This document shows, piece after piece, positions 7,509 through 62,000 of a stretch of 64,000 nucleotides of DNA. Position 1 is the stretch's first letter. Each line of letters opens with the position of its first letter. The notes beneath the pieces are model-generated. The model was not told where the DNA came from and made no database searches. It saw nothing but the letters and a program-made list of their open reading frames with translations. The stretch is from Blasia pusilla (taxonomy: Eukaryota), in contig CM114271.1 of NCBI GenBank assembly GCA_050084515.1, forward strand, positions 49,104,001 through 49,168,000. The letters run 5' to 3'. The position numbers and the translations under genes are program-made.

Positions 7509-7509
<1 letters not shown>

Positions 7510-7549
<40 letters not shown>
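7510..7549. repeat. (GA)n microsatellite
   Basis: Direct observation. Confidence 0.97.
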
Positions 7550-7551
<2 letters not shown>

Positions 7552-8919: not shown

Positions 8920-11830
8920 TTTCTACATGATAAAATTGGAAAATCATGATTTGTGGCTCTTGTAGGAATAGAAAAAAATTCATGACGATTTTTTTTTAAT
9001 GAAAAATTAAGGATCCTACCTCGCATCAAGATACGACGATATCTCGTCAACAAGGTCATTTGCATTGGATGTATCCATATCCTTTGATAACTTAAATGAC
9101 ACCGCATCAGACCCCTTAAAAAAATATTTGTATAAGTAATTGATGGCAGACACACTACTTGTGATTTACAAATTGATGTGACAATAAAAAAGGATGGATA
9201 ATATAGGATTGTAGGGCACAATCCAACGATTATCCAATGAATGTTCGCACTTGATTATCGCCCTCCCATTCTCCAATCTTAGAAAACACAGTAAGAAATC
9301 ATGAATCTATCAAGGTCATATGCCTTAGAGTAATATAAATATAAGCCAAGCTAAAAGGATCCTTACCTGCGAAAAATTGGATAGCCGTCTTCCGTCTCTA
9401 TAGTGTTGGCCGCAAAAGCTTTAGGATAGCCTCTTGTACAATTTTTTGTTTCCTTATCCATACATGGAGCATTAGGATTAAATGGTCCATATGGCTTATG
9501 AATCATACAATTAGTAACAGTAGAATACAACCTTGGATGGGTAGATTGATCAAGGATTTCTGCCGAAATAACATGATCATAATCTGAAGTGGTATGTGGT
9601 TTATCTTCACGACCTAATATAATAAGAACGTGCACATGTGGCAAACCTTTTTTTTGGAATTCCATCACATTAATGCATCCAACAACTTGACCCAATATCT
9701 GATTTTTTATGATAAGTCGTAGCAACTCCTTCTTCTTCTCAAAAACCCGCACAACCACATCCGCACGATCCGTAGCTGATTGACCTGGTAATAAGGCTAA
9801 TGTAATCTTCTCCCACTTTGGATTACATGTCATGGTCAAAAGGTAGTCATGCTTCCCCAAATGTCTTACAATTTCCATTACATCTTGATACAATTGATGC
9901 ATATGATGCGACCCTCCAATAAAAGAAGGTAATATAATGCGTCTCCCAAACCTTCGACTATCCACATCCTGTCGATGCAGAAGATCTTTCACAACTTGAT
10001 ATAATTTGGCCCTTAACTCCTTCTGATTTAAGCGAACCTAAGATAACCGTTGCATCTCTACAATGGCATAGAGATCAACCATGTATTCTTGAGTGAGTCA
10101 ACCAAACCGCAATAACCGATTGTTATCTTTGCCTCTAGCCCGTGTTTGAAGTCGAAAACATACAAATTGCAACGCCGTAACACTTTTTTGATTTCCTTTC
10201 CACAATACCATCACCATCAAATCGTTCCTCATCCATGCAATCTTCTGAAGGTTCAATGTGTTCCTCCTCGTGAATAATGCGGCCCAATCGTTGTGATTCT
10301 CTATAGCCTTCAATTCTTCCAAACGGTATTCGAGGATGCTAACTAGCTTCACCATAGATAAATAATAGAACAAAATATAATGGAATATATGCTTCATTGA
10401 GGTCAGAGATACGCCTCACTCCTCCTCCATATAGTCGTACAATGATATCATGATGGTCAACATATTCACTTCCATCACCCGGTAAAATAGCAGCAACCTC
10501 AAAAGCAGTTGGTAAGTTATAACGCTTTGCATGGAGCCCTCTCTTACTTGCTTTGAGGATAATCCACATATTAAGGGTCACTTGCTTCATACGCCATATC
10601 ACGAAAGATCTTCACATATGGATTGTATTCATGTAACATGTCTTGTAGCCCTGTTAGAATGTCAATATTAAGATGAGATGATCTAGACATAACTCTTCCA
10701 CAATTCCCCAATTCATTTGTAGTATTATGGATGTAGAGTTGAGCAAATTGGGGATGGCCGCCTATCTCATTTACATACACTCCGGTACAAGCAAGTTGGA
10801 GTGTAGAATTGTAAGCTCAAAAATGTGTAAGAAAATGATGATTTCTCGGACTAACACCCGAAATCAATGATTTCAAAAATGGAGGAGACGATTTCAAAAG
10901 GGGTAACTCTATTCTTCCATGGCCACAACACATGCCATACGGAGAATCACTAAACTTAGTGCCCCTGATGATTTCATATTTCCAATGCAAAGCTTGTCAT
11001 GATGGGCATATCTCTGTCATAGAACTTAATGTATGACGACCGTTGGTACGATTCAAACTCCTTTGTACTCGCAACTTCCTAATATCACTTTCTTGGAATT
11101 TGGTCTCTTGGCAAGATTGAGTAATGTATTCAATCTTCCAACCCTATTAACAGTAGACACCGGACGAATAATGGCGCTTTGTGGAGATAACACAACTCCA
11201 TCAATGGTAGAAGACACAAGATCTACTCCTGACCTTACTTCATCCCCCGCATGGGGGAATGTCTCAAAATTGTCGACAACATCATGGTCAACCGGAATGG
11301 AAAGAGTGGTAGGTAACTCAACTCGTGGTGTTACATAAGTAGTAGCCCTGCTCGGGGATATATTCTCGATAACTGCATGGAGTGCACTATCTGCTATACC
11401 AAGTCTTCTTTATTTTCTCCTACGTTACTCCATCCTCATTGAAAGGCCTGAGAAAACATTAACATATTATAATGAGCAGATAGAAATAAAAGATGAACAA
11501 TGAAGCGAATGATTTAGAGTAAGATAAGAAAAGTAAGATATATGTACCTCGAGAATTGACTATCAATAGTCATGAGGTCATTATTTTCCATAGTTGAAAT
11601 ACTCTCAACTACCAAAGTAGGCTCAACTTGAGCATTAAGCGCTTTCCTTCTTTTTCTATACTCTTGATAGTAACTCCTCTTTTTTTCTTTGAGAGCTTCC
11701 ATTTTATCAGCACGAATAACCCATTCTCGTTTTTGGGTTTCCCCGTGTAGAACCTTCCGAAAATCACGTATATTGACAAGATTCAATGGAATGGGAAGTT
11801 TGGAACAACAAATGAATGGTAGGAACAAAT
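8920..11830 (-). mobile_element. Helitron RepHel remnant (Rep region; helicase absent)
   Basis: Motifs PQFAQLYI, RYNLPTAFEVAAIL, TMTCNPKW, EFQKKGLPHVHVL, GYPIFRR, then after a GT-AG intron (9278-9366) LDNRWIVPYNP...YLYKYFFKG; many stops and frameshifts. Confidence 0.92.
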
Positions 11831-18800: not shown

Positions 18801-19269
18801 AGCTAGCATGAACTGATGGACGACAAATTTTTTTCCGAACCCATGATCTAGTATACAAGCAAACTTAGCTTATTAAAATGAGAAGTGTTTATTTCATTGT
18901 AAAATAGTCTAAAAAATAATGAGTTTTTTGCCCATGCTTGAGCACAAAAATTATCTTCTTAATGATTAAAATTTTCCATTTAAAATTTTAAATCTAATTT
19001 TCAATTTCTTATTTCTTAAATGTTACAAGAGTAATAAATTTTGGATTTTCTAAATAATTTCACTCCTCAATTAAAATCAAATAATGCCCGACTCTCGTAA
19101 ATAATTTTACCCCCACCATTACATTTAACATCCACTAATTCCACCATTACATTTTAAAAAATTCCTATTTTTTCCCCTCCATTCCTCCCACCAAAATAAC
19201 ATCCACTAATTAAATCATTAGTTGATTTTAATTGATGGAATAATTTCCCTTTTCCATTCGAATTGACTT

Positions 19270-19630
19270 TCCTTTCTCAAAATATCAAATGTGAATGAAG
19301 ATGATTATTTTCAGAATTTAAATATAATTTCCATGTTTGAGTCTTAAAGGAGTATAACATTTCACTCTTCTAAGTAACTCCACTCCTCAATTTAAATTTA
19401 AATGATACCCCACTCCCCAAAATAACTCCATCATTCCATAAAATTTTAAACAATACATATTCCTCCCCTTTAACTCCTCTCACCAAAATAATACTCATTA
19501 AGTAATAATTAATTAATTTAATAAAATCCTGTTATTTTTCATTCAAATTCATTTCCTATTTAAAAATAAAAATTTTATATTTTTTAATTAACTTGTTATT
19601 TTTTCCTATTTTACATATAAGGTTGTCCTT
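19270..19630 (+). repeat. AT-rich dispersed repeat (probable DNA-transposon terminal sequence)
   Basis: Inverted homolog of 13450-13790; a partial tandem copy precedes it at ~18960-19270. Confidence 0.6.
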
Positions 19631-20499
19631 TATAAAAAAAATTAGAATATATCAAAAAATCCTCCCGCCTATTTATCCTTGTGTTAAGCTAACCCGAGGA
19701 GAGGTTGCTCGAGCTGCCCTAGACTCGACAATGGCGAAAGGAGAGAAGGCCACACTGAGGAGCTTATTTGAAAAGTTTGGCTAGTGGCGGGAAATCTCAT
19801 AGAGGCCATGAAGTAGGGTAGAGAGTGAGCTCAATCGAGCTTGAGCGCTGCATGGGGAGGGAGGGAGGGGAGGGCCATCATTCTACTATTAGAGTAGGGA
19901 ATAAAGACTTGCACAAGTTCAAAAATTCTAGGTGCTGTAGAAGAGAGTACTCCACAAGAGAGGAACTTCAAACGAGGCCGTCATGGAAGGAGCGGTAAAT
20001 GGTGATTTTGTGAGGCCCAAGGTGAAAATTTCTTCTCGTCCAGCTTAATTCATTGCTTGAGGCATAGTTAGAGCTTCAAAAAAAATTCCCTTGTTCAACT
20101 CCCTTCGTCCGTTCCTTTGCCACTTTTTGTTTTAATTCTTTGATGGGAACATTCTATGTAATTTCACGTCACTTTTGAACATTGGACATAAACATGTTCG
20201 AACATCCTCATCATGTACTTCACATTCTTCCTCCTGGACCCTTTTTGTCTATTCATCTTAAATAGACAAATGAGGAGGCCACTATCCCTCTTTGAACCTA
20301 TCCAAAGGGATAGGTTCAATTATTTTCTTGAAGGGAAGAGAAATAGAGAGAATTTCCATTGTGCCTTCAAGATTAGAAATTCAAGTGAGAGGAAAATTTA
20401 TCGAGACATTATCTGATATTGGTGTGCTTATGGACCATATGACTTTCAGAACATTGTTAAAAATGATCTCTTGAGTAGTGTAGAAAAAGGGAAAAAGAA

Positions 20500-34886: not shown

Positions 34887-35193
34887 CATGGTTGCATAAA
34901 AATGGATATGGACAGAAAAATTTGGATATGTCCATGGATATGGATTGCTGAATGTAAAGCCCATACTTATAGTTCATGGTAGAAGGCAAGGCAAGGGCAA
35001 GCGAGGCAATTAGGGGGAAGGGAGTTGAGGTGGGAGGAGGTAGAAATGAGAAAGTGCAAATCAATGAGGCAAGTGGGGGGATGAGAAAAAAGGGAGATAT
35101 GGGGCCCACATGGATAAATCCTTCTACATGACAAACGTAACTCACGGACATGGACATATCCGTGGACACGGACTTTGTCCATATGCAACCTTG
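34887..35193. mobile_element. hAT-type MITE
   Basis: Ends CATGGTTGCATA...TATGCAACCTTG; 8-bp TSD CAATTGAT/CAATTGAA. Confidence 0.85.
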
Positions 35194-42200: not shown

Positions 42201-42942
42201 GACATACTTAGTTTCTCATTTCTGATTTTTCTCTCCTCAATGGTTTGATATCTTGGAAATTTTTTTAATGATTTTATATAAAAATAAGCATAAAATTTAG
42301 ATATATTTTTGTTTTTGTGCGAGTTTTGCAAACATGCATATTGTGGTTCTTCATTTTGATAGGAAAGTACTTCAAACATCCAAAGGATTCTTAGTATTGT
42401 GGCTCCATGGTTTAATTTTTTGGACATTTCTCCTCCCACTCTTATGGCCATGGATAATAGTAAAAAAGAATGAGGAGGAAAAACTCTTGTGCCTATAAAG
42501 AATTCAAGTTGTGGTAACTTTTTTTGGAAATCTCCCCTAGTTCGATCTTTGATTGTCACAAGGTAGACATCTTGAACATTCTAGGAGAGACTCTCAAAAC
42601 ACTCCAATAAGGCGAATTGTTGAGGCATGACTTCTACTTTATTCTAGATCTTGTGCAAGGTATATCACCCCCGCGCACATGATTTTTATGTACCAACCAA
42701 TCCACACACATCAAAGTTGATATATGGCACGGAATTATTATTGATTGCCTCTCTTGCTAGTGTTAGAAGAAATTGGACAACCACTCAAACATATCACACA
42801 TATTATGTATGGTTCACTTCCCATTCAAAAGCTACATCCACGTTCACACACTTTCAGGTTGCTTTACTTAATTTTTCATATATTATACATTACAAGCCCT
42901 CAAGGACACTATCCTCAAGCCTAAAGCTACACTGATGGAAGG

Positions 42943-43896
<954 letters not shown>

Positions 43897-43964: not shown

Positions 43965-44439
43965 CAAGATTGCATGGAAACAGATTTTTCTACCCATGAG
44001 ATGAAGATGGCCAGACATATCCACGGTCATGCCCAACGAGTCTCTTGCCTAGGTTTTTTTAGTATCCCAATTGGATGCTCATGCTTGGGACACGGGAATA
44101 GGTGTAGACTCTACTTAAGGGAGGCGGGTAGGGATCGAACGGATGTGCGGGCTATGAGCCCTTGTTTGGCCTGCAATGGCCCGCATAGGGCTCACGACTA
44201 GCCCACACTAGGCGGGGTGTGGGTCTTGCTGCATGCCTCTGTGGGCAAGGCACGGGGCTGAGTGCACACTAAAAAATGGGTGGCAAGAATGAGTGATGGA
44301 TTGCTAGCTAGACTGATGTGCGGATAGGCCAAAGTTGGGTCTACATTGCGGGCGGCTAGAACCCAGCTCTATACAGACATGTCTATCTTAGGGATGGATA
44401 TAAGTCCGCAAACATAGGCTTTGTCCATGTGCAACCTTG
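43965..44439. mobile_element. hAT-type MITE
   Basis: Ends CAAGATTGCA...TGCAACCTTG; 8-bp TSD ATATCCCT/ACATCCCC (two transitions). Confidence 0.75.
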
Positions 44440-44599
44440 ACATCCCCCAAACTCCCCCCTCATAGTGTACATAATCCGCAAGCAAGCTCACCATTTTAGG
44501 ATTTGGATTGTATCACTTTAGTGATGAATATGATACAAGACACATAGACAACAACTAGGTCTACCCTCACGACATGTCCGCCAAGAAAATATTTGGCCA

Positions 44600-46600
44600 A
44601 CGAGGCGTATATGCTAGTCCTTATAATTAAGTCTCTGCTATAAACTACACCCAACCTTTGTCTACATGCCGGACATGCTAACTCTCTTGAACTTGCATAT
44701 GGACTGGAATATGAGGCGTCATGTTATAAAAAAACTCCAAGAATATAAAACTTGTACCTAGAATGATTAATCCTGAAATAAAAAAAAACCCCTCTTCATG
44801 GTGAACCAGGATGGATTCTGATAGTTCACCGACATAATTGACCACAATAAATAGGATCTTCATGTGAGGTTGTATGTGAACATTCCATTGGTTATCTTAT
44901 GTGGCAAAGCTTTGATCGCCAATCCACGTATGTGCTCTCCACATACAAGTGGCCTAGGGTTCAGATGCATCACCAAGCGCATGACACCATGAATTAACAC
45001 ATGGCGTTCATACGACACCGTAAACTATGAAAAGTGGTGGCTCGACAATGTGGGAAACACCTTAAGGTTGATCCATAATTGTGATGTAGGAATTGGTCGG
45101 AAGGGCATGCATGTACAACTTCATGTTCTACTCCCATAAGTCAATTGTTGTCCAACAATTCATCTACAATACTAGTTAGGGGAAGTGTTATGCTTTGATA
45201 GCAATCTATCATGAGGTAGGCAAAATAATGGGTCCATATGCATGACCACGTTTGAAATAGAGAATCTCTCTTGTGAGTTTTAAAGAAGCAAGATGGCAAC
45301 CAAGTAAGATGTTTGAGCATTGTGATATAATAGAACTTGGACATCCTCGTCCAAATGCTCTCTTGATGCATCGACCTTGGGGTTAAGCAAATGGTCATGG
45401 AAGAAATCTTTTATGTCATTATCAAGGAACTTATTGAGAATGGTTGATTCTTGGTCATTCTCTGAGCCTCCAACTCATCTTCCAAGGAGAAAAAAAGGGC
45501 ATCCTCCACCATGAAAAGATGCTCCAACTCATGATGCCTCTAAGTTGGGGAAATCTTCTATACGTAAGTTTTAGATCTATTGGAATATGTTTGATGGTTG
45601 GACTTTAGGATGCCCCAAAGAGGAAATGAGTAGATATACTTGAAAAAAACATTAAGGAGAAAAAAACTTATTTTAAATTTATTTTAAATATGTACAATTG
45701 GTTGATTGATTTTTCATGGGTCTTACCCATTTGTAACTAACAAATATCTCCTCGCCTATCTCTATGGTTTTGGTAGCTAGGGTGGAAGTGTAAAAATCTT
45801 CATCCCATTGAGAACAAAACTACTTGTGTTGTGCCTCCATGTATTCCACAAGGTGTTTCCCTCGAAATTATGACTTGATGAATCAATATACCTAGATATC
45901 TTACGGCATTTTACGGGATCACCATCAATATATTTTTGATGTGAGTGTTAATGATGAGAGTTGTACACAATAATAGCATGCATGGACAAGATATACTCCA
46001 AGAAAGATGGAGCCATTTTCACCAACTCCCTCCATGGAGCATGAGAGTATATATATAGTACCAACATATGGGAATAGGATGGGGCAATCATCTATATCAC
46101 ATCCCTCTTCAACCACTTTCCTATCTAGTGTGAATACCTCAGATCCGTCCCAAGAAACAAAGTTGAATCTTTGACTATGTATGTCCTACCCCATATCTCT
46201 ATAGGCACACTAATGGGGATAGTACAAGGACATCCCCATAGGGTCGTGTCACACTCTAGGTATATTCAATTGAAGGACCTTCCAACTCCATGGGATCATG
46301 TGTGTCGAGCATATTGTGTACATCCCTACGTGTCTAGATCCAAGGTTGCTTACATTCACTATGGGATCTGAGGGACTCAAGGGCTGACATGAGATGCTCA
46401 AGTGCTCAACATTTGGTTGTTCAACCTTGATCTCAAGGAGAGGTAGTGGCAGCAAAGGCATTTATTGGAGAACCAACATTATGACACGGGGGACAACTAC
46501 ACAAATATCCACCCATGTTGTCCTCAAAGGATACACGAGAGGATACATTGAATCATGTGTCAGAGGATGTATTTCCAAGAGATCCCTAAGTGATTGAGCA
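44600..46600 (-). mobile_element. Heavily decayed LTR-retrotransposon pol-like remnant
   Basis: Short broken ORFs with faint integrase-like traces only. Confidence 0.25.
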
Positions 46601-47379
46601 TAGTTTCAATTGCACATGAAGACACCTTCATTCAAGTATTTACTCAACCTATTGAAAAAATAGCAATGGACAAACAAATTAGTATAATCAAGGCTTTTGT
46701 GTGAGTAATACCTGTGTATGCTCTCTATTAAAGATCCTCTAACACTCGAGAGATATTACTAGAGGCCTCCAGAGCACATCCATACTATGGAGGCCTTATG
46801 GTATTGTATCTTGAGTTCATCCATAAACCTCTTTGTTTGCAACGTCGATAGAGGTTACAATGAAACACTCAAAGTAGGAAAAATGAGGAGACGGGGGAGC
46901 ATTGAGACATAAATACCTGCCCTTGGGGTTGAATTGCTATTTTTACAACTTTTTTGTGAGTACTTTGTGACTCCCAAGACTCACAATACCCGGCTAGTGT
47001 GTCTCCCCTAAGTCACACAATTGCGAGGGCTTTGGAAGTCTTGGAAATACATGAACAAACCTTGCAAGTGAAGTGTGAGTCCTTGCAATGTTTGGAATTT
47101 GCAAGTGCTATGAGCCCCAACCTATTTCAACTCTTTAAAATTTCTTTGGAAAAAACTTGTGAGTCATGAAAGGCACAATGGACTCCCACGATGCTTACAA
47201 TTGGCGGTGTGCAATGGACTCGCACTAGACTTACAAACCCAAAACACCACCACTTACCTATGTGTCCCTCCATGTTTTCTTGATTTCCGACACTTCATCT
47301 TGAGTTGGGCCCGTTCAAGGTGGGCTCAAGCCCGCAACACCCTACGGGCTAAGTTGCGGGCCTCTATACAAGCTTGAGC

Positions 47380-47670
47380 CAAGTTTGCATGTTGATAAAG
47401 TCTGCATCCGTAGACATTTCCATATCTGTGGACTTACATCAAACCTATCCAAGGACTTGTTCATATAGGCCTCACCTTCCTCTTCTTTCTCATTCCCCCG
47501 ACTTGCCTTTGTGTTCCATACTTTTTTATTTCTTCCTTCCTCCACCTCCACTTCCTTCCTCCTTATTGCTCCACTCACCCTTGTTGTGCCTTCCATCATG
47601 AACTATAAATATGGGCCCCACTTCTTGCAATCCATGTTAGTGGACATGTTCAGACTTGTCCGTCCATGTT
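47380..47670 (-). mobile_element. hAT-type MITE, inverted homolog of 34887-35193, one end lost
   Basis: CAAGTTTGCA terminus and shared internal CCATCATGAACTATAA.TATGGGC block. Confidence 0.75.
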
Positions 47671-49092
47671 CGCTAGTCAATCAGTCTTCTTCCTCTTGAA
47701 CGTGGCAAAGCCCTTGCCATTTCAAGCCTCTTCCTTTTCTTGTTTTTCCCCCTATTTTGGCATGAGCATAGACGATGGCATGGCAAAGAGGAGGGCTTTG
47801 AAAGTGGTTTGGGAAGACCACTTTCAAAGCCCTTTGGGTTTACCACCTCCATATGGTAAAACCAAAGGTAGGGATGGGTATGGCTAGCAAGGCAAAAAAA
47901 TGGCTCCATAAATGGAGTGAGGAAATTCGAGAGTAAGGGGCTTGAAGAGAATAGTTAGTGCCTTGGGTTGTCTTGTGAAATCTTAGTTGAAGGCGTTTCT
48001 TCACATAATCGTGCAGCATGTGTTCAAGAAATGCATGCTTGTGTGTGATGTGTGGGTGGATCGGACCAGCAATCTAAATATCATCAAGTCATCCAAAACA
48101 CAATTATGGTAGAGGTCCAAAATGGAGCTACAACTTCTCCTAAGTGCATGTAGACCATGATCAACATGTTTTCTTTGGATTGTCATCACCACATGATGAT
48201 AGAGGCCCACAAGGAATTATAGGGGGCTTTTGAGTCAGAGGAGGATCACGAGGCATGGTTGTTGGCTTTAGAAACACCTACCAACTATAATCGAGCTTCA
48301 TGGGTGTCAATCCTACGGATGGAGGTACTAGTTGGAGGCTCGCGCAGAAAGCAAGTGGACTAATAGCGGTTGGTGGAAGCATGGTATTTGACTCAAATGC
48401 CAAAGGGGACACATTCCTTAGTCACGGAGGAGAGGAGGCATTTTAACATGCCTTTATGATTATCTATTATCTTACATTACTGCCCTCAGAATGTAGGGAT
48501 AGTTTTTTGTATTATAGAATACTTCACTAATTATGTGGGTGCCTTGTGCACTTTACAAAGTGTATTGAGTTATGACTTCTCAAGTTGTGGATGATGTGGG
48601 ATAGTGTTGAGAGACATGAGATGATGTATTTTCCAATCAAGGATGTATTAGCATCCAAGGTCAGTTCTTGAAACTTTAATAGTCCATGTAGTGTTCTCCA
48701 ATTTATTTCTTTCAATAAAGTTTTTAACTACACTTTCCCCTTTATGGCGTAGCATGATTTGTCGCATCCCAATGATGCCATAGTGAAGGAGGAGCGATGA
48801 CCGGCACACGCGCCCATGTTGATCGGCTCACATCTACATCTGGGAATGGATCAAGTTTTCGGAGGAGGGGACGATTTGTGTCATGCGCATACCTATCGCT
48901 ACATAACATACATCGCTGGTCACATCTACACCACACAACACCGATCTTCCCCACACACGGGTCGATCCACACATGTACAAAAATCAACTTGTACATATAC
49001 ATGGAGATTACACAACCGCCCCCCTAGCTGGCAGTTGGATCCCCCCAACTCCAGATAGAAAAAATCACATCTCTCTGACATGACCTACTACC

Positions 49093-49231
49093 CTATACAC
49101 ATCTCGGACACATCCATCGTCCCGTGGGAACCACATCAAGAGGGGGTCAGACATGACATATGCCACCCTCGAGAACAACCATCACATACCAACATGGTGG
49201 CTGCACCCCTCGTAGATCCACATAACATACA
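49093..49231 (-). pseudogene. PHD finger at the integrase C-terminus
   Basis: CMLC...MLVCDGCSRGWHMSCLTP/LDVVPTGRWMCPRC gives a full C4HC3 pattern across one frameshift. Confidence 0.9.
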
Positions 49232-49239
49232 CCTTAACC

Positions 49240-50450
49240 CTGCAGGTACCACTTCCAAGCTCGGATCCACTGTCCCGTCTACGTTTGGAAGATGACATGG
49301 CGCACAATTGCGCACATGATCCTTCCAAACCATACCATCCCGTCCCTCCAACATGAAGACTTCGGTCGGTAATACCTTGCGCATACGTAGGATCGTGCGC
49401 CCTGCAGTGACATCTAGCGTCGTGGGTGCCGCCTACTGTAAATACATGTAATCTCCAAGATGAAACCTCCTAATCCCTGGACGATAACCTCCTCCACGAA
49501 TGGTCGCATACCTCAATGTATCTCTATGCTAAGCAATAGCTAAGTTCTCAAAGGCCATGGGCATAACTCTACGAAAAACCTCCACCCTCTGAGAACATGC
49601 TTGTACCCATACATCTGGATCATCAAGATCTAACACCTCCTCCATGTCACGTCGAATTGCTGCAAGTAAATCTGGCTCTCTTCCAAAGAGCAAAAAGTAT
49701 GGTGAAAATGACGCCAAGGATGCTTGTCGACTAAAGCGATAACCCATAGCCAACCATGGGAACTATAAGTCCCACTCCCTCAACTGTCCCCGTTGCAAGC
49801 CATACTTGCGCACAATCCTCTCTTCACTGTCTGTACCACTCTCTTCGCCAACCCATCCGCTCAGGATGATCTCTGGACGTTGTATAGTGATCTATCAGTG
49901 CCTGATCACACAAGGCCTGAAACTCTCCCCTGAACTCGATACCCTGGTCAGTCAATACCTCCGCCGATGCACCAAAGTGACTAAGCACATGATCTAGAAT
50001 GCATAAGTTGTTCCCTCATTTGCCTTGTCCGATAGTGCCACCAACTCTATCCACTTGGAGAAATGCTCCACCATGACCAACACGTACCTATGATGACGCC
50101 CCGTCAATGACAAAGGTCCTCGCAAAGTCTAAACTCCACCAATAACCTAAACCCATAATTGGCAAAGGATGTAGTTGCGGAGTGGGAGCATTGAAGGATG
50201 CTCGCACTCTGTCACATACCATACATCTGGCCACAAGCTGCTGTACCCCAGTATGCATGCCGCACCACCAATATTGAATCTGGAGTAAGCTGTAAGTACG
50301 CTTCACTCCAAAATGTCCCAACTCATCATGGGCATGTCGCACTACACGTGCTCGCTGGGAAGGATGAGGTACCACTCGTATCCTACCATCTCCCCATACC
50401 CGCAAAATGTGAGTCCCCTCCCACCTGAACCTCCTGGCTCTCTGTAGGAT
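49240..50450 (-). pseudogene. Gypsy integrase (H2C2 zinc finger plus core)
   Basis: HAHDELGHFG...YWW...CMVC, WSLDF, FSPYFLLFGREP; several frameshifts. Confidence 0.92.
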
Positions 50451-50717
50451 CTGATCCCGCTCCCTAGCACTCAATGTGCTCGCTATGACGCCAATGCGCA
50501 AGAACTCCACAACCTCCACGTCGTCATGGATATCACGGCCACCTGTCGCCTCCTTACTGACCTTCGGATCCAAAGACTCATCATCCAATCCCACCATTGG
50601 AGTCATCACCTGTGGTTGACCTACCATAGTCAACCAACAAAGATAGGCAGATGCATGCCAACCGGGCACCATCTCCTCATCACTCTCTCCGTGCCATCGA
50701 GCTTTTGTGTCATCTCT

Positions 50718-51140
50718 CTAACTCGAACATGGATTACGAATCAACCCATCTGCATCTTGGTTCAGCCAACCTGGCCTATGAACCACCTCAAACTCATACT
50801 CCTGTAGTAATAGAGCCCATCTGGCAAGCTTTCCCGTAAGCTTGTCGGACTCCATCAACCACCTCAACGGTTGATGATCAGTGATAAGTGTGAAAGGGTT
50901 GCCGAATAAATAGCACCTGAGATGTGCCATGGCCCACACTGTAGCCAAGCACTCTCCCTCGTAGGAGCTATACTTTGCCTTTGCAATGTTGTTTGGTTGG
51001 TTCGCGTAAGCCACAACGAACTCCCTCTCCTTGTCATCCCTCTGAGTAAGCACTGCTCTTAGACCCAACATGCTCCAATCCGTATGTAACTGGAATGGGC
51101 GATCCCTAACCGGTCTCTGTAAAATGGGTGAGGACGTCAA
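50718..51140 (-). pseudogene. Ty3-type RNase H
   Basis: FQLHTDWS, YSSYEGECLA, FTLITDHQPL, LARWALLLQEY. Confidence 0.93.
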
Positions 51141-51249
51141 CTTGTCCTTGAGCTCCTAAAATGCTTGCTCCAGATCATCTCCCGACAACCAAACCTGATC
51201 AAGTCTCGTCAACAAGGTCAAAGACTTTGCGATCGTACTAAAACCCTTG

Positions 51250-52050
51250 ACATACCGTCGATAGAAGTTCGCCAGTCCAAGAAATGATCGGACTCAACTC
51301 ACATCTGTAGGGCATGGAATCTGCGCAATAGCCTCTACCTTCGTCTGCTGAACGCCTAACCCACTCGGGTATATGGTGTGTCCCAAATACTCAATCTCCT
51401 CCTGAAAGAATCTGCACTAGCATGGATGTAACTTAGGTCCATGTAACTGCAATTGTCGAAACACCTCCTCCAAGTGTCACTCATGCTTCTCAACCGTGGA
51501 AATAAAGATAAGAATATCATCTATGTAACATCGTACAAAATCCAAGCCAGCCAAAATCCTATCCATCACTCTCTGAAACTCTGCAGGCGCGTTCTTCAAC
51601 CCAAATGGTAAGAACCGCCACAGTTACAAGCAATCTCTCCCGAACCGATCTATCCCCCATAATGTTGTCTTCTCCCTGTCCTCCAACCTGATAGGAAGTT
51701 GATGATAGCCAACACGGAGATCTAAAGTATTGAAGATCTTTGCATGCCCTATCGCATCAAAGATCTCCTCAGGAGTAGGCATGGCGTACCGATCTGACCT
51801 CGTATGTCGGTTGATAGGACGGTAATCTCCACACATCTGCCTAACTGTCCAATTGCCATACATATCCTTCTTCTTCGGCATGACTGTGGCAGATGCATAC
51901 TCCCCATGTGATAACTCCACAAGTCCTGCCTCCAACAAGTCCTGACTCCTGCTCTGAATCAAGGCTCGCTCCATATCGAATACCAGAGGGTCGATTTAAA
52001 GATCGGTGTATCACTAGCCAACTCAATCCGTATCTCGGGACCCTTCAGCG
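51250..52050 (-). pseudogene. Reverse transcriptase
   Basis: MCGDYRPIN, LDLRVGYHQ, PFGLKNAP, and YIDD at ~51516-51527; in-frame stops. Confidence 0.95.
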
Positions 52051-52480
52051 TACCCAAGTCTCTCATATTGAAGGCAAAACAACTGACATGCCCTCTCAAA
52101 AACGTATGAACTCGCCGTCGCTCTCCTCCTATCAACTTGAGACCTATCACAGGCTCCCAAATCTCCATCGTGACCTCACTTGGAGAGGACGCAACCTCCG
52201 GCTTTGGTTGCTATGTAGCAACCCTAACCACCTCCGCAACACCAACTCCACTCTGACTTCCTACACCATGCTCCACATCCAAAAAATGAACATGTGCTAC
52301 TCTGGCCGCCTTCGCACTCTCTGCTCGAACGACGTCCCAGGAAGTCCATGGTTGCCTATCTCTCCTCGTCTCGCCCCCAGCCAATGCCTGTACAAACCCT
52401 ATAGGCAATGGTCCAACTCGTGGACGTGACGGCATGGATGACACTCGCGTCCACCTCTGCTCAGCCATACCTAGGCTGAC

Positions 52481-53480
52481 TATCCATGTGAGACAATTGA
52501 GGTCCATTGCCTTCCCCAACACCTATCTTCGGGATGCCTCAGTCATCCCTGGCACCGCCGTAGTACTGATAGCGAACCCCATGGCGGGCTCGTGCTCATC
52601 TGTTGTAGGCTCCTCCAATGCTCCAGTCACCTCATCCCAAATCATGCCTAGCCTTCCCCGACGAAAGGCATGGGATGTTGCGAAGCTCACCAACGTATGT
52701 AAGGCTACCCTCAACTCCCCCACCCTAATGGCCATCGCCAACGGTGGTCTATCATCCCATGTCACCACATGAGATCAACGCCTTGAGTCCTAAATAGCAT
52801 CCACTGTGAGATGTGGTGCTCTCTGGACTCCATCGTATGCTCGACCCAGTACCTCTCATGGTATCAGGTTCGTCCACCATAGTAGTGGACAATGGGCACG
52901 TGATCCAACTCTCGCTGCATCTAACAACATAGCAGGTCCCAACAAGGACCTCACTTGATGCACACTCGTCATCACACATGCACGAGTGTCTCCCAAAAAT
53001 AACACGTTCTACAAAATATACGTTGGAGAACATGTTTGACTCTCTGGATCCTGCAATCCAAATCTTGCAACATCTCCCAAAACTTCCCTGACCTCGGATC
53101 CTACAATCCAAATCTCGCAACACCTCCCAAAACATCCCTAACCTCAGATCATGCAATCCAAATCCTCGGCCAGGTGATGAATGGCCCTGACATGTCCATC
53201 CAACAATCACCAAATGAATGGTGCCAACTCTATCCAGATCCTGCGCCCCCACCAAAGAGATGTCGGCGGGTAGTGTATGCTGATATCCCCGAACGGCAGA
53301 TATCGGCAACAACTCAGGATACCTCTGGACCAATCTCGCCACGTGACGTAATGATACTCACCACGCGGTCTCATCTCTCTCCACATAAAGGTACTGATGC
53401 ACCCGTATACCCGCCTGCAATATTGCAGCCAATCCGGTGCTAATCCCTCCGAAGAGATCTAACACCCTAACACCCTCCTC
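52481..53480 (-). pseudogene. DNMT3-like C5-cytosine DNA methyltransferase domain inside pol
   Basis: Motif I VLDLFGGI, II YVERD, III ADI, IV VIVGWTCQG, VI YIL*NV, VIII LLDAARVGSRAHCPLLWWTNL, IX EHEPAMGF, X RR*VLGKAM, in DNMT3 order and spacing. Confidence 0.9.
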
Positions 53481-53762
53481 TAGGGAATGCCACACAATAG
53501 GTGTGGTATTTAGTGGGGTCAACGTCTCCACTCCAAGAGCCCAATCGCCACGTGACTCTTGCTGCTCCAGGATAAAAGCATGACTCCACGCTTGCCTCAC
53601 GAGGTCGTCGACACTCCTCTGTAGCTCTCGAGTCGTACCCCACAATGGTGAAGAGGTCTTGCCAACATGGGAAGAGACACCTGCCATGGCATGTCTCTCC
53701 ATTGGACTATCCACTACTAGGACATCCTCCGCATAAGCGTTTCCCTCCAAAAACTTTCCTGG

Positions 53763-54239
53763 CTAGCTAACACTACCTGTGAAAGCTGCCAACAGGGTCA
53801 CAGACTCGCCTCGTGATCGACCACCTTGTCCCGCAAACTGCACGGATAACTGACTCATCCGCCCGTCACCTGACCGCCACCTTGGCTGATAAGCAACGGT
53901 CTCCTCCCAGAAGTCAATGATGAATCCTAGGGGGTATAACACTGTACTCCCCACCAACACATCGTACGACTCAACTGGTATCGTAATCGTGCGTGTGCAC
54001 ACCATAGCACTATCCGTCGCATGCTCATGCTGGACTTTGACAACTATCTTCTGTTGAGTCATATATTGCCTGGGTGACACGCCCTCAATCGAGGTCTGTA
54101 TCTGGAAGGGACAAGGCTCAATGTCGGCCTTCCGTAACCCCAACGCTAAACACGCCGCCTTCCCTAACATCAAGGGTTGCGCTCCCGAAACAAGTAGGAC
54201 GCGCTGCGGGTGGTATAATGTCCCCGTCGGACTAACCAA
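53763..54239 (-). pseudogene. Retroviral-type aspartic protease
   Basis: RVLLVSGA (LLDSGA with Asp to Val) and YDVLVG motif. Confidence 0.8.
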
Positions 54240-55356
54240 GCAAAATACTCCAGCTCACTTATCCAATAACACTACTCCAGGTGTCACCACTCCTTGCTCT
54301 ATGGCCAGTCGAGCTGGCATATCTACCAATTTTGCCGCCGCCGCATGCCATGACTCTATGGGGAACGTCATGAGCACCGGCTCTGAGGGCAAGTCCTCCA
54401 CCTCCTCAACTACCTCTAAACAAGAAGCAGTCACCTCTCCATGCTCACACAACATGGCGGCGAGCCGGAACACCTCAGTTGGTCCAACTCCCAACGTCGC
54501 CAACTCTATGGCGGAAAATAGTGGAGTCTTACTCACTTTGGTGGCCACCTCCAACACTATGGTCGACACTGACTCCACTCGAGCCGGCATAGGAGTTGTC
54601 ACTCCAACTCCTTGTGATGTTGACGCACCTGCCTGAGCTATAGGCATCGCTGGTCGTCGAGGCACCATCGATGGTGTGTAGTGCCTCCGACAATATGAAT
54701 GATTGTAGAACCCTGGCCTGCCGCCCATCGGTTCCCTCTGGAGGGTCAATCTCAACTCCACCTCTCGATGGCTCGGTGCCTCTCGCAGTACCCCGAGTCA
54801 CCACTGCATCTGCCTCAACCTGGGCTGCACTACACATAAACCCCATACTGGCGAGATCCTCACCCGGTTACTTCCCGTGGTTGATCTATTTTCCTGTTTT
54901 CGCCCTGACCATCCTCAGGGCCCAAGGGGACCAGACCATTGGGAAAGGGATAGGTCCGGAGGAGGCCCCCAGCGTGGGCCAAAGGTCGCTCCGGCGTCAA
55001 TAGCTTTATCTTTTTTAAGCAATAAAGGCTCTTGACAAACAAGCAAGTATCCACAAAAGGACCTTTCCATATAGAGCGTGTCTTAAACTAATTTCTGTGT
55101 TTCCTTATTACTGTTTTAAATCCACCTTTGGTAGGCTTGCCCCAAGGTGATACCGAAGGTCTACCTCCTAGATATACTACGGAAAAAAATTGTCGAAATA
55201 CTGAACATGGTGGTGAAACTCTATTGCGCGAGTAGCATGGGGCACGTGGAATCACGTATGAAGTAGCTCAAGGAAGGTTAGAGCCATACTAGCTGCTCGC
55301 GGCTCCGTGCCTTCCCTGAGCTGCATCATCGTCATGGCATCAATCCTCTGCTCCAA

Positions 55357-56659
55357 CTAATCGATACGTGAGAGAAGTGCCAGCTCTGGTGCTCCTGCTC
55401 CATCTTGTCTAGCTGGTGGTGGTCCTCTACCACCACGTCTAGGAAGAACTCCCTGACCTCCTCCATGACGACCGCCCCCAGGCCCTCGGCCTACCTCTGG
55501 ACGTGACTCTCGGAGAAGGTCAAAACACCTATCCCTAGTGTGACCATATCTGTGGCAATAGTCACACTCGTGCCATGGTGGGGCCATCCTCTGTGGCTCT
55601 TGAGCAATCGAAGGCGCTCGTGGTCCTCTCCCATGCTGTGGGCAGTCTCTCTGCCTATGGGCCCCTCCACACGTCCAACAAGACCACATTGGTCCCTGTT
55701 GGGCAACATATGTAGGTACGGGTCGTTGCCTCATATGCTCACGATACCCGACCTGCTCTCTAGGCACACCGGCCTGTTCCCGTGGTACTAGTGCTTGCTG
55801 TGGCACCTGTGGGGTCACCGTCGCTTGTGGACCCGTCGACTCTCAAGAAAATCCAGCGGTCACTACCTGCTCCTCACTCATGTTGAGCTCAATACGCTCA
55901 GACAACTCAAAGACCACCTTCAATGTGGGCTTTCGCTGTGTGAATCAGCACCGCATCTCGGACTCTCCTCCGTAGTTCTCGATCCAAAACCCTGTACCAA
56001 TACTAGATTGACTGCGCCTCAGTCACTCCATGTGTAGCAATGATCAGCCTCTTCATGCGTGTGAATGCCTCTCTCAGACTCTCACCCGATCGTCGCTGAA
56101 AATCCTGTAGATTCTTCAGCTTGTCGGTGCATACACCCTGGTAGCTCTTCCCCAACTGTCGGTAGAACTCCACTATGGGGCTGAAGCTGGGTGGCCCTCT
56201 ACCACCAGAGGTCTCTGCCATATCGCTTGTCTCACTGCCCTTCTCTCCTTCTAGTCTCCAGGCTGATGGTGTGGGTCTCTCTCCTCTCACAATCCCATCA
56301 TATGCCTCGTGACCACTAGTGGACACATACCCTAGAGCCCAATACATCCTCCAAGCATCGATCTCTACTGAATATAGTGATCGAAACTCCATCTAGTCAT
56401 CCATCGAAGGACCCTCCAAGTGCTGGAACAACCTCTTCCATGCCATGAAAGGGTTGAACCGTGTCGGGGTCCGTATCTCCTAGAAGTCGCACCACGTGTC
56501 GAACTCTTGGATAAAATCATCTAAGTCGATGGTGCCCATTGCACCCAAGAAACAACGCATGCCCCGATGGCCCATGTCGTCCATCTCCTGCCAAGTGATA
56601 CTGCCTCCGTCTACAATCTCCTCACCAAACTCGGTGTCTAGTGATGACGATCCAGCCAT
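55357..56659 (-). pseudogene. Gag with two zinc knuckles
   Basis: FQRRSGESLREA (major-homology-like) plus CWTCGGAHRQRDC and CDYCHRYGHTRDRC; in-frame stops. Confidence 0.85.
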
Positions 56660-58803
56660 GGATGGATGTCGAGGTATCTCCTTACTCGTAACCCCTCAAT
56701 ATCTCACTCCACTCCGTGTCACTCCACTACTACTACTCGCACTATCCCGTTCTTTCGAACCCTAGAAGAAAGCCGTGATGATAACCTTGTCTCACCCGCT
56801 CAAGCACTCAGACTCACCGAGAGTCTCCCACACTCCTCACTAGCTCACCTATGCTAACATCAATCCCGTGATGACATACCCGGCCTCACGCACACTCAAC
56901 ACTCGGGCTCACCATGAGCCTCCCAACTGACTCACCTAACCTAGCGACACTCTCTCGGGTCATACACGTGATCCCTACTGGGCAACTGCCGTATATCCAC
57001 CAACATGCTATACATGAAAAGAATCTACACTCGTCACCATCATTGCACCCACCTAGCACTAGCTACTACTCGATACCCAGCTTTCTCAATCTCACAGGAC
57101 AAGTGCGGGAAAAGGGACTCGAATGGGTAACCTGATCACACCCTCCAACCTACTTCATCGTCAACACGCACTCCCCCATGTGACACGGCAACCTCATGAT
57201 TGGCAAACTCCCGTCGCAAATCCCATCCACGCTTGCAAATCACCAAATGCAGAAACGAGCTCCCATTGCACAACTCGCCTCAACCACGTCCAATTGCTCA
57301 ACCTCGTAGCCTGAGTCAACCTGGTTTGGCTCCACTCCTACCACGTACGCACTGTCCGATCACATCAACATGACCCCGACCACATTTGACCTTGCCCGAC
57401 CACATCCGGACTCTCAACCATGTAGCTCAACATCATCCACGTCCGCTATCCAACTATGTAGGTCACTTACCACGTCGGTATCCTCACCGCCACCACGTTA
57501 CCTAAATGGGGGGCCTTACGGCCTCCCCAAAGTGCGGGAAAGGGGGTGCGTCTCGCACCCCCTCCGCCTCCGCACTCCACATCTTTTCCGCCTCCGCGCT
57601 TGGCTGCTTCCGCCTCCTCTACGCCCTAAACCTAGCCGCGCCTAGCCCTAGCCGTCCTTGCAACCCTAGCCTTGGCGGCTACAAACTCTCAACGTTTCCT
57701 TTCTACACTCCCGTTGTGCGCCATTCTCTCGACGCTCCAACACTCTCCGTTGCACCCGAACGCTCTTGCGTAACCCCCACTCTGTTGTTGTCCCTCGTCA
57801 ACCTGCACCCAAAAAATCTGAGAAAAATGGACAACGCTTCCGCCCACGACCTTTCGAACAGAAAAATGACCAACACCCGCAACACACGCGTCTCCAGGGG
57901 CTCCCGACCAAGGCAACTCGCTTGCCTACCTGCAAACAACGAATTCCCACCAGCCCCCTGACATCTTTCTCATGTAAAAATAAAGAGTAGTAAAAATGGC
58001 ACACCCGGCCTTAAAATCCACTGCTTAATCTACATCGGCATATCGAGCCTCGTCCACCCTGTGCTATCAAGGAATCCGGATGCTAGCACCCTAGTCCTAT
58101 CTCACACATATACAAGAGAGGTGCTCCAACGGCCCAACATGAGAAAGATGGCTTAGGAAAGACATCTTCCTCTCTTATATAGGGTTGGGAAGAGCCAAAA
58201 GGCTCTTCCCCCAAAAATAGCCATCCCCTTGGTAACCTACGCGCACGGGTTACCAGGGGCGGGTGACCTGGTCAACAAGTCACCCGGCTGTGAAAGACCT
58301 CAACATGAAAGTTGTCAGAAATGATGTTCTTGACACAATAGACCTATTCTCAGCCTCATCCGACATCATGGGACAAAGTTACACTCAAGATAGTCTGCTG
58401 GCTCCTACGCCCTATCCACGATAGATCTCGGCCTATCGGCTACTCAGATGTGACATTTGAATGATGGATCCTAGAATAAGGAGGAGGAGGAGGAGGGCAA
58501 GGGGGATGAGGAGATTCTCCTTATAGTGTCTAGCCGCTCTAAGGTAGAGTAGGAGGTACCCATTGGATAGTTCTTCTAGTGGAAGCCCTAGGCCTATTAG
58601 CAATGGGCGTTGTAATATGGCATACGACCAAAATAGTCCTATCAAGGTAGCTATTGGTAGTGACAAGATGCATGCAAAAACAACGTCCATTGGGACTTTT
58701 TCATGTACTAGACCTTCTACGCATTCGACATTGTTGTTAGTGACCCCCTGAGTGCAAAAAGGAAACATAGATCCAAAGCATAGGAGGCCCATCCCATCAT
58801 TTA

Positions 58804-59092
58804 CAAGTTTGCACACGGAAAAAATCTGTGTATGTGGACATGTCCATGTCTACAGATTTCTGTCCGTCCCTAGGACGGACATGATCGTGTGGGCCTGGGT
58901 ACCTGCACCTAAGCCCATAGCGTAGACTAGCTTAGGTTGGCTGAGCTCGCATTGGTTTTTTGGTCAAGCGTAGCCCGCACCAGCCCGTAGCAAGTCCACA
59001 ACCAGGCCAACTATGGGCTCTGAGGACTAAGAAGGGGGATGCGGGTACGCGGGCGGCATGTTCATGGACTTGTCCATTTCCGTGCAACCTTG
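58804..59092. mobile_element. hAT-type MITE
   Basis: Ends CAAGTTTGCAC...GTGCAACCTTG; 8-bp TSD ATCATTTA/ATTATTTG (two transitions). Confidence 0.78.
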
Positions 59093-62000
59093 ATTATTTG
59101 CAATTTAGCAACAACAAGAGTTCACATTTTGGTCATGTGGAGGACTACATCATCAATGAGACCTACATGACAGGGGAGTGTATGGGGATCGAGGGTTTGA
59201 CGTGGAATGCCAACCCCTAGGCCAAAGGAACCTTAGACTAGGAGTTTTTTTTGTGACAGGTATCATGGATATGGTCGTACTTGGTATAGGTGATTTATCT
59301 TAAATGCTAAGTGACCCCAAAGCAAGCATCTGAGCAAGTCGGAGTACCCAGAGCAAGTAGAGGCTAAGGTGTTGGAAGTCTTGGAGAGGATATGGTGGAG
59401 GGTGTGCCCCAGAAGGAGGCAAAGGCCCACCACTTGGACATATTGAGGAAGAAAGATCATGGGCGTGCAGCATGATGACAACTTGAATAGAGAAGCAACA
59501 AAATACATTATAGGGGAAGCATTGTGATTGCATGACACTAGATCTATATCCTCTATGTCTAATGGTAGTGGCACTAATCAAGAGGATCCTAGATGGATTT
59601 GCAGAGTTTCCTAAGTGGAGGCAACTACCAGCATGACTAGAGGATCAACCATGGATTCGGAAGTGCAACGAGAGGAAGCATGTAGGCAGATGAGTCTTCC
59701 CCAATGATTTACCTTATTCAAGGCAATGAGGACCCTAGAGATGATTCTTGATCAACAAACGCCATTGAGTGGTTTTTGGTGTTGCTTGTTGCCATTTTCT
59801 TTGTGCAATCCTTTTTTATGTTCCTTTTTCCTTACTTGAGAGGCCTTTGATTGTCCTCATTTGAAAAAAAATTCAAATAAAAGGAAATTTTATCCAAGAA
59901 GACCTATGTTAATAATATAGATTGGAACATACACGGATTTGACCATGAATATGTTCCAATCTTTCTCCAAATTTTCGAGCTCTCTAGACGGGTCTATTTA
60001 TGAAAGAAATCTCCGACGCCCTATCATTTTTCCTCATAGACTCTACAAGGGGAAGTCCTTTTTAATTTTTGGATGTTTTGAATTGGAAATCATTTCTCGA
60101 AAGAGTGTGGTTAGTTTTGTAAAAAAACTATCAAGACATCTAGAATGCTTACAACTTCTTTGTTTTCCAAATGTTTCCAATTTCAACCCGCAAGAACTTC
60201 CACTTCACTAAAACCGCAACTTTACACAGAACCGCATTATACATCCGTATTCCACAAAATAATCCGGAATAGGAACAGAACGAGGAGTAATGGGCACGTG
60301 GGTCGACGCTTTTGGTAGTTAGACCGGTCCCACCGAGAGGAGCAAGATTCGACTACTATAATGAACTACTATAAGGTTCGATTGTGCTTTGGAACCTTTT
60401 GGTCTCGTCTCAAGAGAGTGACCAAGGCAAGGCTTGGCTTTTGCACGTTGCAGCTGAACAAGACGATGACATTGAGGCTTTGACCTTCACGCAAAAGGAA
60501 GTCGCCAGAGAGTGTGGCAACTCCTTTGCCATTTTGTCGCCGACTGCCCCACCATTTGGAAGCTTCCACCTTACCCTTATGATCGAGGGACGAAGATCAC
60601 GAAGGATTCTTGTTCTCTACAATACTTATATTAGGGAGCAACATTCTTCCATAATTTCGACCGAAGAGGGGTGCATAGGGAAGCTTGGAAGCTACGATTG
60701 CTCAATGCGACAAAACCCTATGTGGTTCACGATCCCACCATGAAGGAGTAAGAGGACTTAGACTTAGCTTATGTCAAAATCTTGGTCGTGGTGGAAGAAT
60801 CGGTGCATGGAAAGACAACTCCTTTTCGTGCCATGATAATGTTTCTTTTCACTATTATTTTATTTTATTTTTATCGTGGTTCTAGAATTTCTAATTTGGG
60901 TAATTCCGGTGTTGCTTACAACTGCCCTTATTTTTTCACTTCATCGGCCATATCCCACATGCTTGCCTTTTAAATACTAGCATAACAGAAATATCTCTAT
61001 TTATTTCCACACTAAATAAAGCTACAAACTGCTTAAGCGGTTCCCATAACAGTTTGGAAAGTCACATGTCATACAAAGTGGATGGACGAGGGACGCAAAT
61101 GGGATTGTTAATAAATATGTCTAAGAATCTCTTCCAAGTCTAGGCAAGTACTCCATTCTTCTCTTCTCCATTTTGAAGAGACATTCAAGAATGCTCTATT
61201 TTGAAGGGTAGGGGTCCACGTAAACGCATACAAGTTGGTGCCCGTGCAATGCATTGGATTAAAAGTGATGGGTAATTTTGAATTATCCATTATTATTGTG
61301 TAATGAAAAGATTTAATATCCCAAAATCAATTTTGAGCAATCCAATTGGCTAAGAGAGTAAGCGATCCTATTGATTGTGAGGGGCAAGTGTCAAGAGGAG
61401 ACGTGTTCAAAAATCAAGAATGGGTTATGCAATCATAATATATATGAAGTGAACTAGTAAAACCCATAATTTTTGAAAGCTTTGTAAAGTGGAACCAAAA
61501 TTTACGCATTTATAAAGTGCAAATTTTTTGTTGGAAAATATGACCAAATTCTTTGAATTTTTTGAAGAGATTTAAAAATTTGGGAAATATTCCAACTTGA
61601 GAATTGGATTTTATTTATTAATTTTAAAAATAACCAGAATTTTTTCTAGGAATATTTTCCATCCAAGAAAAATTAAACCAGATGGTTTAAAAAATATCCC
61701 CAAGCCATTTCCATCTATGGATATGATTTAATGGCGATAAGATTTCTTCAAAAATAACCTACATCTAAATAGTTAAGGCAACATTGGTTTTCTTGCTATG
61801 CCGTAGTAGATGAATATATTAGTAGGTAAGCATGTGTAATTCATGAAAAAGAAATGTTCTCGTATTGAGAAAATTGTAGTGCTTATAAAACTGCCCTTTT
61901 CTGAACTTGCTTCTTATGTTAAAACGCCATGATCCCCTTTCACTTAGAAAACCATCTATCCCATCTCCCAATTTGGGGGAAAAATAAATTTGCAACTCCT

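Follow-up and report, generated by a model that had tools for sequence, protein, structure and literature searches.

The window analysed here is a stretch of 64,000 nucleotides from Blasia pusilla (GCA_050084515.1, contig CM114271.1, positions 49,104,001 to 49,168,000 of the forward strand), and positions are counted from its first letter. On the minus strand, between 48879 and 58455, lies a complete retroelement insertion of 9,577 bp with a 4-bp target-site duplication. Its full domain order is gag, protease (PR), DNMT3-like cytosine methyltransferase (DNMT), reverse transcriptase (RT), RNase H (RH), integrase (IN) and PHD finger, the last of which is an addition to the preliminary description made from the letters of the window. 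The element region forms a GC-richer block, with about 51% GC compared with about 40% elsewhere in the window. We consider it probable that this is a dead, complete Ty3/Gypsy-type insertion of a DNMT3-bearing family with split terminal repeats, whose Pol reads gag-PR-DNMT-RT-RH-IN-PHD.

The methyltransferase domain of this copy extends from 52445 to 53504 on the minus strand, with motifs I, II, IV, VI, VIII, IX and X in order, interrupted by six in-frame stops and one frameshift. The preliminary description had set it at 52481-53480; the place and strand are correct, and the span is slightly wider than given. Three-frame translation and tblastn with a Marchantia model recovered all seven motif strings quoted there, namely VLDLFGGI (followed by STG), YVERD and GWTCQG in one frame, and YIL*NV, LLDAARVGSRAHCPLLWWTNL, EHEPAMGF and RR*VLGKAM in another. 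Within GWTCQG, the Cys codon occupies 53190-53192, as described. The stops are located at 53358-60, 53009-11, 52856-8, 52790-2, 52775-7 and 52523-5. The single frameshift arises from a tandem duplication of 50 nt that lies between motifs IV and VI (53037-53164, minus strand; Tandem Repeats Finder: period 50, 2.5 copies, 87% matches). In other copies, the duplicated unit is replaced by 17 letters, compared with 68-70 here, as seen in 168 whole-genome shotgun (WGS) reads. Motif I is intact, and the Glu of motif VI has become a stop codon. In motif IV, the window copy has Thr-Cys where its relatives have Pro-Cys, and motif VIII reads AHCPL instead of the AHRxR of relatives, with both Arg lost. 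The copy is defective, as had been stated, through its stops, its frameshift and the loss of key residues, and no functional enzyme is made from it.

The similarity of the domain to C5 methyltransferases is far beyond chance, because homology searches find family proteins at E-values down to 5e-66. With the read-through N-terminal half as the query, 607 of 1.84 billion representative proteins were recovered at E<=1e-3, of which 191 also passed E<=1e-10. Among longer proteins, the same half had 17 matches (E 5e-66 to 1e-18), all of them family members; Marchantia polymorpha accounts for 13, Calypogeia fissa and Sphagnum troendelagicum for one each, and there are two others. The DNA_methylase family PF00145 is a precomputed annotation in 14 of these 17 proteins; it also scores above cut-off in 11 of 12 aligned family members and in 5 of 6 proteins in each of two further sets. 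Tblastn aligns the Marchantia model Mp_4g09160 (P0169, 1,278 aa) colinearly with window positions 56584 to 52265, across gag, protease and methyltransferase, and the identity is 42-58%. Two further proteins, P0181 and P0156, extend the tblastn colinearity through RT, RNase H and integrase; the latter, from a metagenome contig, is a single open frame of 2,138 aa with the order gag-PR-DNMT-RT-RH-IN. This colinearity, together with Pfam matches on the flanking domains, confirms that the methyltransferase lies between PR and RT on the pol strand. In the open relatives, the C5 motifs I (FxGxG), IV (Pro-Cys), VI (Glu-Asn-Val), VIII (Arg-x-Arg) and X follow one another in order.

Comparing the family with methyltransferases of known class revealed a clear preference for DNMT3. 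A profile built from 12 family proteins matched 29 DNMT3A/B/C sequences among the PDB sequences at 3.9e-14 to 6.4e-10. The next matches were 4onj (8.5e-6), which we take to be tobacco DRM, HaeIII (1.4e-5), HhaI (1.5e-4), DNMT2 (6e-4) and DRM2 (2.5e-3). The alignment of the profile to DNMT3A covers motifs I to VIII and then IX to X in the order of DNMT3A, showing that the domain is not permuted. A second profile, from eight divergent domains, had 78 matches among longer proteins, 62 of them retroelement proteins; the only 16 non-element matches are all DNMT3-type proteins bearing PWWP/ADD domains (5e-22 to 5e-13), and those with a name are all fish DNMT3A/B. The Calypogeia protein was modelled with AlphaFold, and pLDDT exceeds 90 over most of its DNMT domain. 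With this model as the query, Foldseek gave exclusively DNMT3A/B/C among the matches listed (to rank 49; E about 1e-16), with target template modelling (TM) scores of 0.77-0.83 against the catalytic-domain chains. Profile, longer-protein search and predicted structure all favour DNMT3A/B/C, in line with the DNMT3-like call of the preliminary description, and among solved methyltransferases DNMT3 is by far the nearest match, both by sequence profile and by predicted fold.

The element domain shares its predicted catalytic fold and motif order with cellular DNMT3A, DNMT3B and DNMT3C and with plant DNMT3 such as MpDNMT3b. It differs from cellular DNMT3 in being only about 22-26% identical, in having no adjacent PWWP or ADD domain and in being embedded in a retrotransposon polyprotein; compared with DNMT3A, its motifs VIII and IX are separated by about 60 additional residues. 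The plant DRM proteins, occurring in streptophytes, are likewise relatives of DNMT3. Their motifs are circularly permuted, according to the text of de Mendoza et al. (2018; PMC5890265), whereas the element domain starts with motif I, and the profile matches DRM2 at only 2.5e-3 compared with 3.9e-14 for DNMT3A.

The domain is widespread in the family. A scan of metagenome contigs gave 314 candidate stretches, 162 of which encode family relatives, and at least 15 Marchantia gene models, as well as Calypogeia and Sphagnum models, carry the family as ‘hypothetical proteins’. In a tree of 115 domains, restricted to element-borne sequences, the window copy falls into a clade of 20 rows with an SH-like approximate likelihood ratio (SH-aLRT) support of 97. 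This clade includes every Marchantia, Calypogeia and Sphagnum row, and the best identity is 66%, to Calypogeia. Across eight domains that are only 31-41% identical to one another, several residues do not vary, namely the Gly in motif I, Cys-Gln in motif IV, Glu-Asn in motif VI, the two Arg in motif VIII and the Gly in motif X. For ten decaying copies, the pairwise ratio of nonsynonymous to synonymous substitution rates (dN/dS) lies between 0.23 and 0.96 over 45 pairs, with a median of 0.46; it is near 1 in the closest pairs and 0.35-0.45 in distant pairs. This pattern fits selection on active lineages followed by neutral decay, for which we regard it as moderate evidence. By these comparisons, the domain is homologous to a methyltransferase that is retained at the same position in liverworts, in Sphagnum and in more distant green-lineage elements.

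The metagenome loci L001-L080 are nearly all decayed, and in the AHRxR motif His or Cys codons frequently stand in place of Arg, which is what deamination of methylated CpG would be expected to produce.

Sequencing runs having 31-mers in common with the window are available, and reads bearing the same species label were used to estimate the abundance of the family. One genomic run (X18) and three RNA runs were mapped on 46000-61000 at 80% likeness. The WGS depth is 0.1-6 in the flank, 1063-1213 in the DNMT bins, 1177-1256 in gag, 1290 in protease, 1718-2379 from RT to integrase and 1914 in the terminal repeat A at the 5' end of the element. The DNMT segment therefore stands at about 500 times the flank depth and is on par with gag and protease; this ratio is a rough proxy for copy number, based on about one hundredth of the run, mapped at 80% likeness.

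These data bear on the simplest alternative, that a fragment of a host DNMT3 gene landed once, out of frame, in a single retrotransposon copy. The window copy is indeed out of frame and full of stops, and nothing else speaks for such an event. An abundance equal to that of gag and protease excludes a single capture event. Moreover, it occupies the same position in the Marchantia, Calypogeia and Sphagnum models and in the metagenome stretches counted above, and a second insertion of the family in the window retains a remnant of it. According to the bioRxiv preprint 2021.02.12.428880, the host MpDNMT3b is another gene, Mp5g09290. We assign a negligible probability to the capture of a host fragment, an outcome that the preliminary description had named as one that would overturn it, and the methyltransferase is a trait of the family.

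Small indels occur in the reads of other copies exactly at the frame changes of the window copy (51977, 54673, 55931 and 50120). The differences of the window copy are mostly T for C and A for G, at 545 places compared with 297 in the reverse direction, and this excess would fit decay by deamination of methylated cytosines. RNA from all three runs is sense-biased, with a depth of 44-103 over RT to integrase and of 2.5-20 over the DNMT bins, where the opposite strand has 0-1. In each run, no more than 1-4 RNA reads reach 99% likeness to the window copy. The family is thus high-copy, in the hundreds, and transcribed in the organism of these runs, and the window copy itself is essentially not transcribed.

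The remaining parts of the element follow the Ty3/Gypsy pattern that had been recognised at the outset, with CCHC knuckles in gag, the order PR-RT-RH-IN and a DDE integrase (tblastn, Pfam). All of them lie on the minus strand. Downstream of repeat A, a leader (56585-57975) has no coding match, since the tblastn matches begin at 56584; WGS reads give a depth of 386-479 over 57022-58023 and of 1256 over 56521-57021. Inspection by eye did not establish a primer-binding site behind repeat A. The gag region (55333-56584), with two CCHC-type knuckles, aligns with residues 1-412 of P0169 at 42-56% identity. It is broken by stops and by a frameshift near 55931-55944, and the reads of other copies differ by 1 nt at 55931. 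The protease region (53763-54840) aligns by tblastn with P0169 residues 430-780. In this position relatives carry the aspartyl protease PF13650/PF13975; the window piece itself has no Pfam match, and its catalytic Asp-Ser-Gly reads Val-Ser-Gly at 54189-54191.

Between gag and protease, an insertion of about 414 nt (54867-55281) appears as a gap in the P0169 alignment. Many other copies do not have it, as 247 WGS reads contain joints that skip 409-414 nt and show about 20 other letters instead. A 33-nt piece of the insertion (55229-55262) is common to a very abundant RNA, on the opposite strand, in all three RNA runs. The insertion may derive from a highly expressed or organellar gene. An rps19-like peptide from its open reading frame at 54860-55087 was a guess that found no Pfam support, and we discarded it.

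Beyond the methyltransferase, the RT (51372-51872; RVT_1, E 3.7e-24 on the translation with stops read through as X) retains YIDD, with a frameshift at 51977. RNase H follows at 50796-51179 (RT_RNaseH, E 2e-30; RT_RNaseH_2, E 8e-26). The integrase (49304-50363) begins with an H2C2 zinc domain at 50199-50363 (Integrase_H2C2, E 7e-16), followed by the DDE core; the integrase aligns with P0156 residues 1805-2073 by tblastn and is frameshifted near 50119. At the C-terminal end of Pol, a PHD finger (49139-49231) is found by Pfam at E 2e-6 to 9e-6, over the curated cut-off, and relatives also have a PHD finger after the integrase. Chromoviruses are Ty3/Gypsy elements with a chromodomain after the integrase. 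The present element likewise has a chromatin-reader module at the C-terminus of the integrase; in contrast to chromoviruses, the reader is a PHD finger and not a chromodomain, and a methyltransferase is present in addition.

The termini of the element are of the TG..CA type (TGTCA..TGACA), with depth boundaries at 48879 and 58455. No pair of long terminal repeats (LTRs) on either side of the element was found by a direct-repeat search or by sensitive blastn of 44000-49600 against 56300-61000. Instead, repeat A (57976-58455, minus strand), at the sense 5' end, begins with TGTCA, and the WGS depth falls from 1914 to 25 just outside it. Repeat B (48879-49016, minus strand), at the sense 3' end, ends with TGACA and is defined by the depth boundary and by read joints. 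A G-rich stretch (49017-49040) precedes it. The target-site duplication TTTG is present at 48875-48878 on the left and at 58456-58459 on the right.

Other copies reveal how these repeats are arranged. A joint from 49016 to 57976, representing an A-to-B junction in other copies, is present in 388 WGS reads, and a joint from 58455 back to 48879, representing a B-to-A junction with two letters between, in 305 WGS reads. These joints, together with the continuity of A with the interior and of the interior with B in the window copy, provide all four junctions of an element of the form A-internal-B-A-B. The metagenome locus L076 shows the whole arrangement, with A1 at 7277-7586, B1 at 19192-19289, the letters ‘AC’, A2 at 19291-19608 and B2 at 19609-19706. 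Its termini are TGTCA..TGACA, its target-site duplication is AGGT, and the same G-rich motif stands before its B1. The repeats of locus L070 follow this order too, and the B-A-B part is seen in L063. The ends of the element are split direct repeats in the order A-internal-B-A-B and not ordinary LTRs. The window copy keeps only A-internal-B with an intact target-site duplication, which would most simply result from recombination between B1 and B2. The second family copy in the window, at 42942-43896 on the minus strand (about 955 bp; self-blastn), has lost most of its interior. It has the same TGTC..GACA termini and the target-site duplication AAGG, and its 113-nt remnant of the DNMT motif I region lies at 43206-43318. 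Split repeats recall the DIRS elements; in place of the tyrosine recombinase that defines DIRS, Integrase_H2C2 with an rve-type core is present here, and there are target-site duplications.

Outside the element, the window contains fragments of further transposons of plant type at 2660-5165 and 9363-10037, namely a CACTA transposase (Transposase_21, E 2e-30) close to DUF4216 and the helicase-like N domain of a Helitron (E 2e-35). Like the bryophyte clade of the element, these fragments indicate a land-plant host. An open frame at 6338-6961 encodes a UTP15 C-terminal domain (E 2e-23) and is probably an exon of a host ribosome-biogenesis gene. The repeat adjoining the element (47002-48003) has 57-161 times depth in the genomic run and is similar, in inverted orientation, to 34908-35193.

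Elements of this kind are known from algae. The preliminary description had mentioned DNMT3-bearing Ty3 elements in Klebsormidium, and these correspond to KnitGypsy-Dnmt3 of Klebsormidium nitens, for which the Fig. 4 legend of de Mendoza et al. (2018; PMC5890265) gives DIRS-like repeats with Gypsy domain content. According to the text and legend of that paper, on which our comparison is based, KnitGypsy-Dnmt3 shares with the present family the domains of a Gypsy element, a DNMT3 that sits unrearranged in the Pol frame, split repeats of the form A-coding-B-A-B, a streptophyte host and silenced or decaying copies. The family described here differs in its host, which the nearest relatives (a bryophyte clade of the DNMT tree) indicate to be a land plant, and in its hundreds of copies, while the text states that K. 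nitens has fewer copies than Symbiodinium. SymbioDIRS-Dnmt3 of Symbiodinium, in the same account, also has a DNMT3-type domain inside Pol and split direct repeats. It is a DIRS element with a tyrosine recombinase, whereas the present element has a DDE integrase with H2C2, a 4-bp target-site duplication and TG..CA ends. This kind of element is also treated in PMC12344493, and a 2026 preprint (10.64898/2026.05.21.726589) contains the wording ‘streptophytes (Gypsy-DNMT3)’.

In the literature searched, we found no paper on a DNMT-bearing retrotransposon of land plants or naming the Marchantia models; the figures and supplements of PMC5890265 and PMC12344493 may list copies. The earlier statement that no described land-plant family was known to its author agrees with this literature, and it does not hold for public data, where the family already exists as unannotated Marchantia, Calypogeia and Sphagnum models. 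The kind of element is known, and our findings extend it to land plants (bryophytes) at high copy number with family RNA; they introduce no new principle.

The likeness to KnitGypsy-Dnmt3 could be convergent if the bryophyte elements took up DNMT3 independently. The same DNMT clade occurs in at least three architectures: PR-DNMT-RT in the window copy, Marchantia, P0156 and the Closterium protein P0067; RT-RH-DNMT-IN-PHD in a large group that includes P0043 and P0198; and a Copia-type protein of Closterium (P0063; integrase, RVT_2) with the DNMT at its C-terminus. The module was therefore moved or taken up more than once. Repeated independent acquisitions are also argued for in the text of PMC5890265, and no Klebsormidium sequence was among the matches of the searches made. 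On the other hand, the combination of Gypsy content, an unrearranged DNMT3 in Pol and DIRS-like A-internal-B-A-B repeats is rare and is common to our family and the published description. In addition, Closterium proteins with the same CCHC-PR-DNMT order, such as P0067, fall in the same part of the DNMT tree. We consider an independent uptake unlikely. Other distant relatives include a Scenedesmus ‘pol’ protein and an element, P0047, with both a Dam adenine methylase and a C5 domain.

Whether the domain acts on DNA is a separate question, as it could be kept for RNA methylation, for nucleic-acid binding or for the structure of the polyprotein. The KnitGypsy-Dnmt3 domain gave no methylation in yeast, a result which its authors call inconclusive, and the SymbioDIRS-Dnmt3 domains methylate CG de novo in the same host, both according to the text of PMC5890265. 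The former result favours a role other than DNA methylation, and the latter argues against it. In our family, the catalytic and S-adenosylmethionine-binding residues are invariant across members that are 31-41% identical, and the predicted fold matches DNA-bound DNMT3 catalytic domains over the whole length. A non-DNA role accordingly seems improbable to us, and methyltransferase activity of the family is predicted on the basis of its conserved residues.

Several observations weigh against the overall reading of the element given here, in addition to the yeast result. Neither the open DNMT pieces of the window nor their X-read-through halves score a PF00145 match in Pfam at E<=0.01 to 0.1, and the assignment rests on the relatives. 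Against PDB sequences, the best E-value of the window pieces is only 0.013, yet 29 of the 30 matches are DNMT3A/B/C. Among 39 metagenome loci with the domain in one frame, 38 contain stops (1-16) and only L001 is stop-free, and a median dN/dS of 0.46 is only moderate. The copy number is estimated from a rough depth ratio, and the depth from RT to integrase is about twice that of the DNMT segment; related elements without gag-PR-DNMT may account for the excess, or the conserved RT may recruit more reads. Nearly all RNA reads are less than 95% alike to the window copy and most are only partly aligned, placing the expression at the level of the family, to which non-autonomous or dead copies may contribute. 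Finally, no Klebsormidium protein appeared among the named matches of the word-index, exhaustive representative and cluster searches, and the link to that alga is the described architecture.

PHD fingers generally read histone tails, and the PHD finger of the element may, from this general role, steer its integration. The methyltransferase would be made within Gag-Pol, travel with the particle or the pre-integration complex and methylate the element's own new cDNA, and the new copy would enter chromatin already bearing a host-like methylation mark. We regard this self-methylation as a tentative proposal, with somewhat less than an even chance of being correct. In their Discussion, de Mendoza et al. 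(2018; PMC5890265) put forward methylation of the cDNA, and they also offer self-limited transposition and protection from cytosine deaminases as alternatives. The preliminary description had suggested that an active ancestor could methylate its cDNA or its insertion sites, which is likewise tentative. A broader scenario would be that one old green-lineage group of Ty3 elements with DNMT3 and split repeats passed from charophytes into land plants, persists in at least one genome of bryophyte type, where it is transcribed and has hundreds of copies, and encodes an active enzyme that marks its own cDNA and sometimes host DNA; taken as a whole, we consider it doubtful.

A transposon with its own de novo methyltransferase is counter-intuitive, because hosts silence transposons chiefly through cytosine methylation. 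Descriptions of such elements have so far been limited to dinoflagellates and a single charophyte alga. Our results show this kind to be abundant in genomes near Marchantia, Calypogeia and Sphagnum; RNA of the family can be detected, and there are methyltransferase domains that are naturally open. The question thereby moves into land plants with good genetics, in which Marchantia knock-outs, methylome maps and transformation are available. Some bryophyte models named ‘DNA (cytosine-5)-methyltransferase’ or ‘hypothetical protein’ are transposon genes, which matters for counting DNMT repertoires. If the broader scenario were true, part of the methylation of a land plant would be written by a transposon and not by its host.

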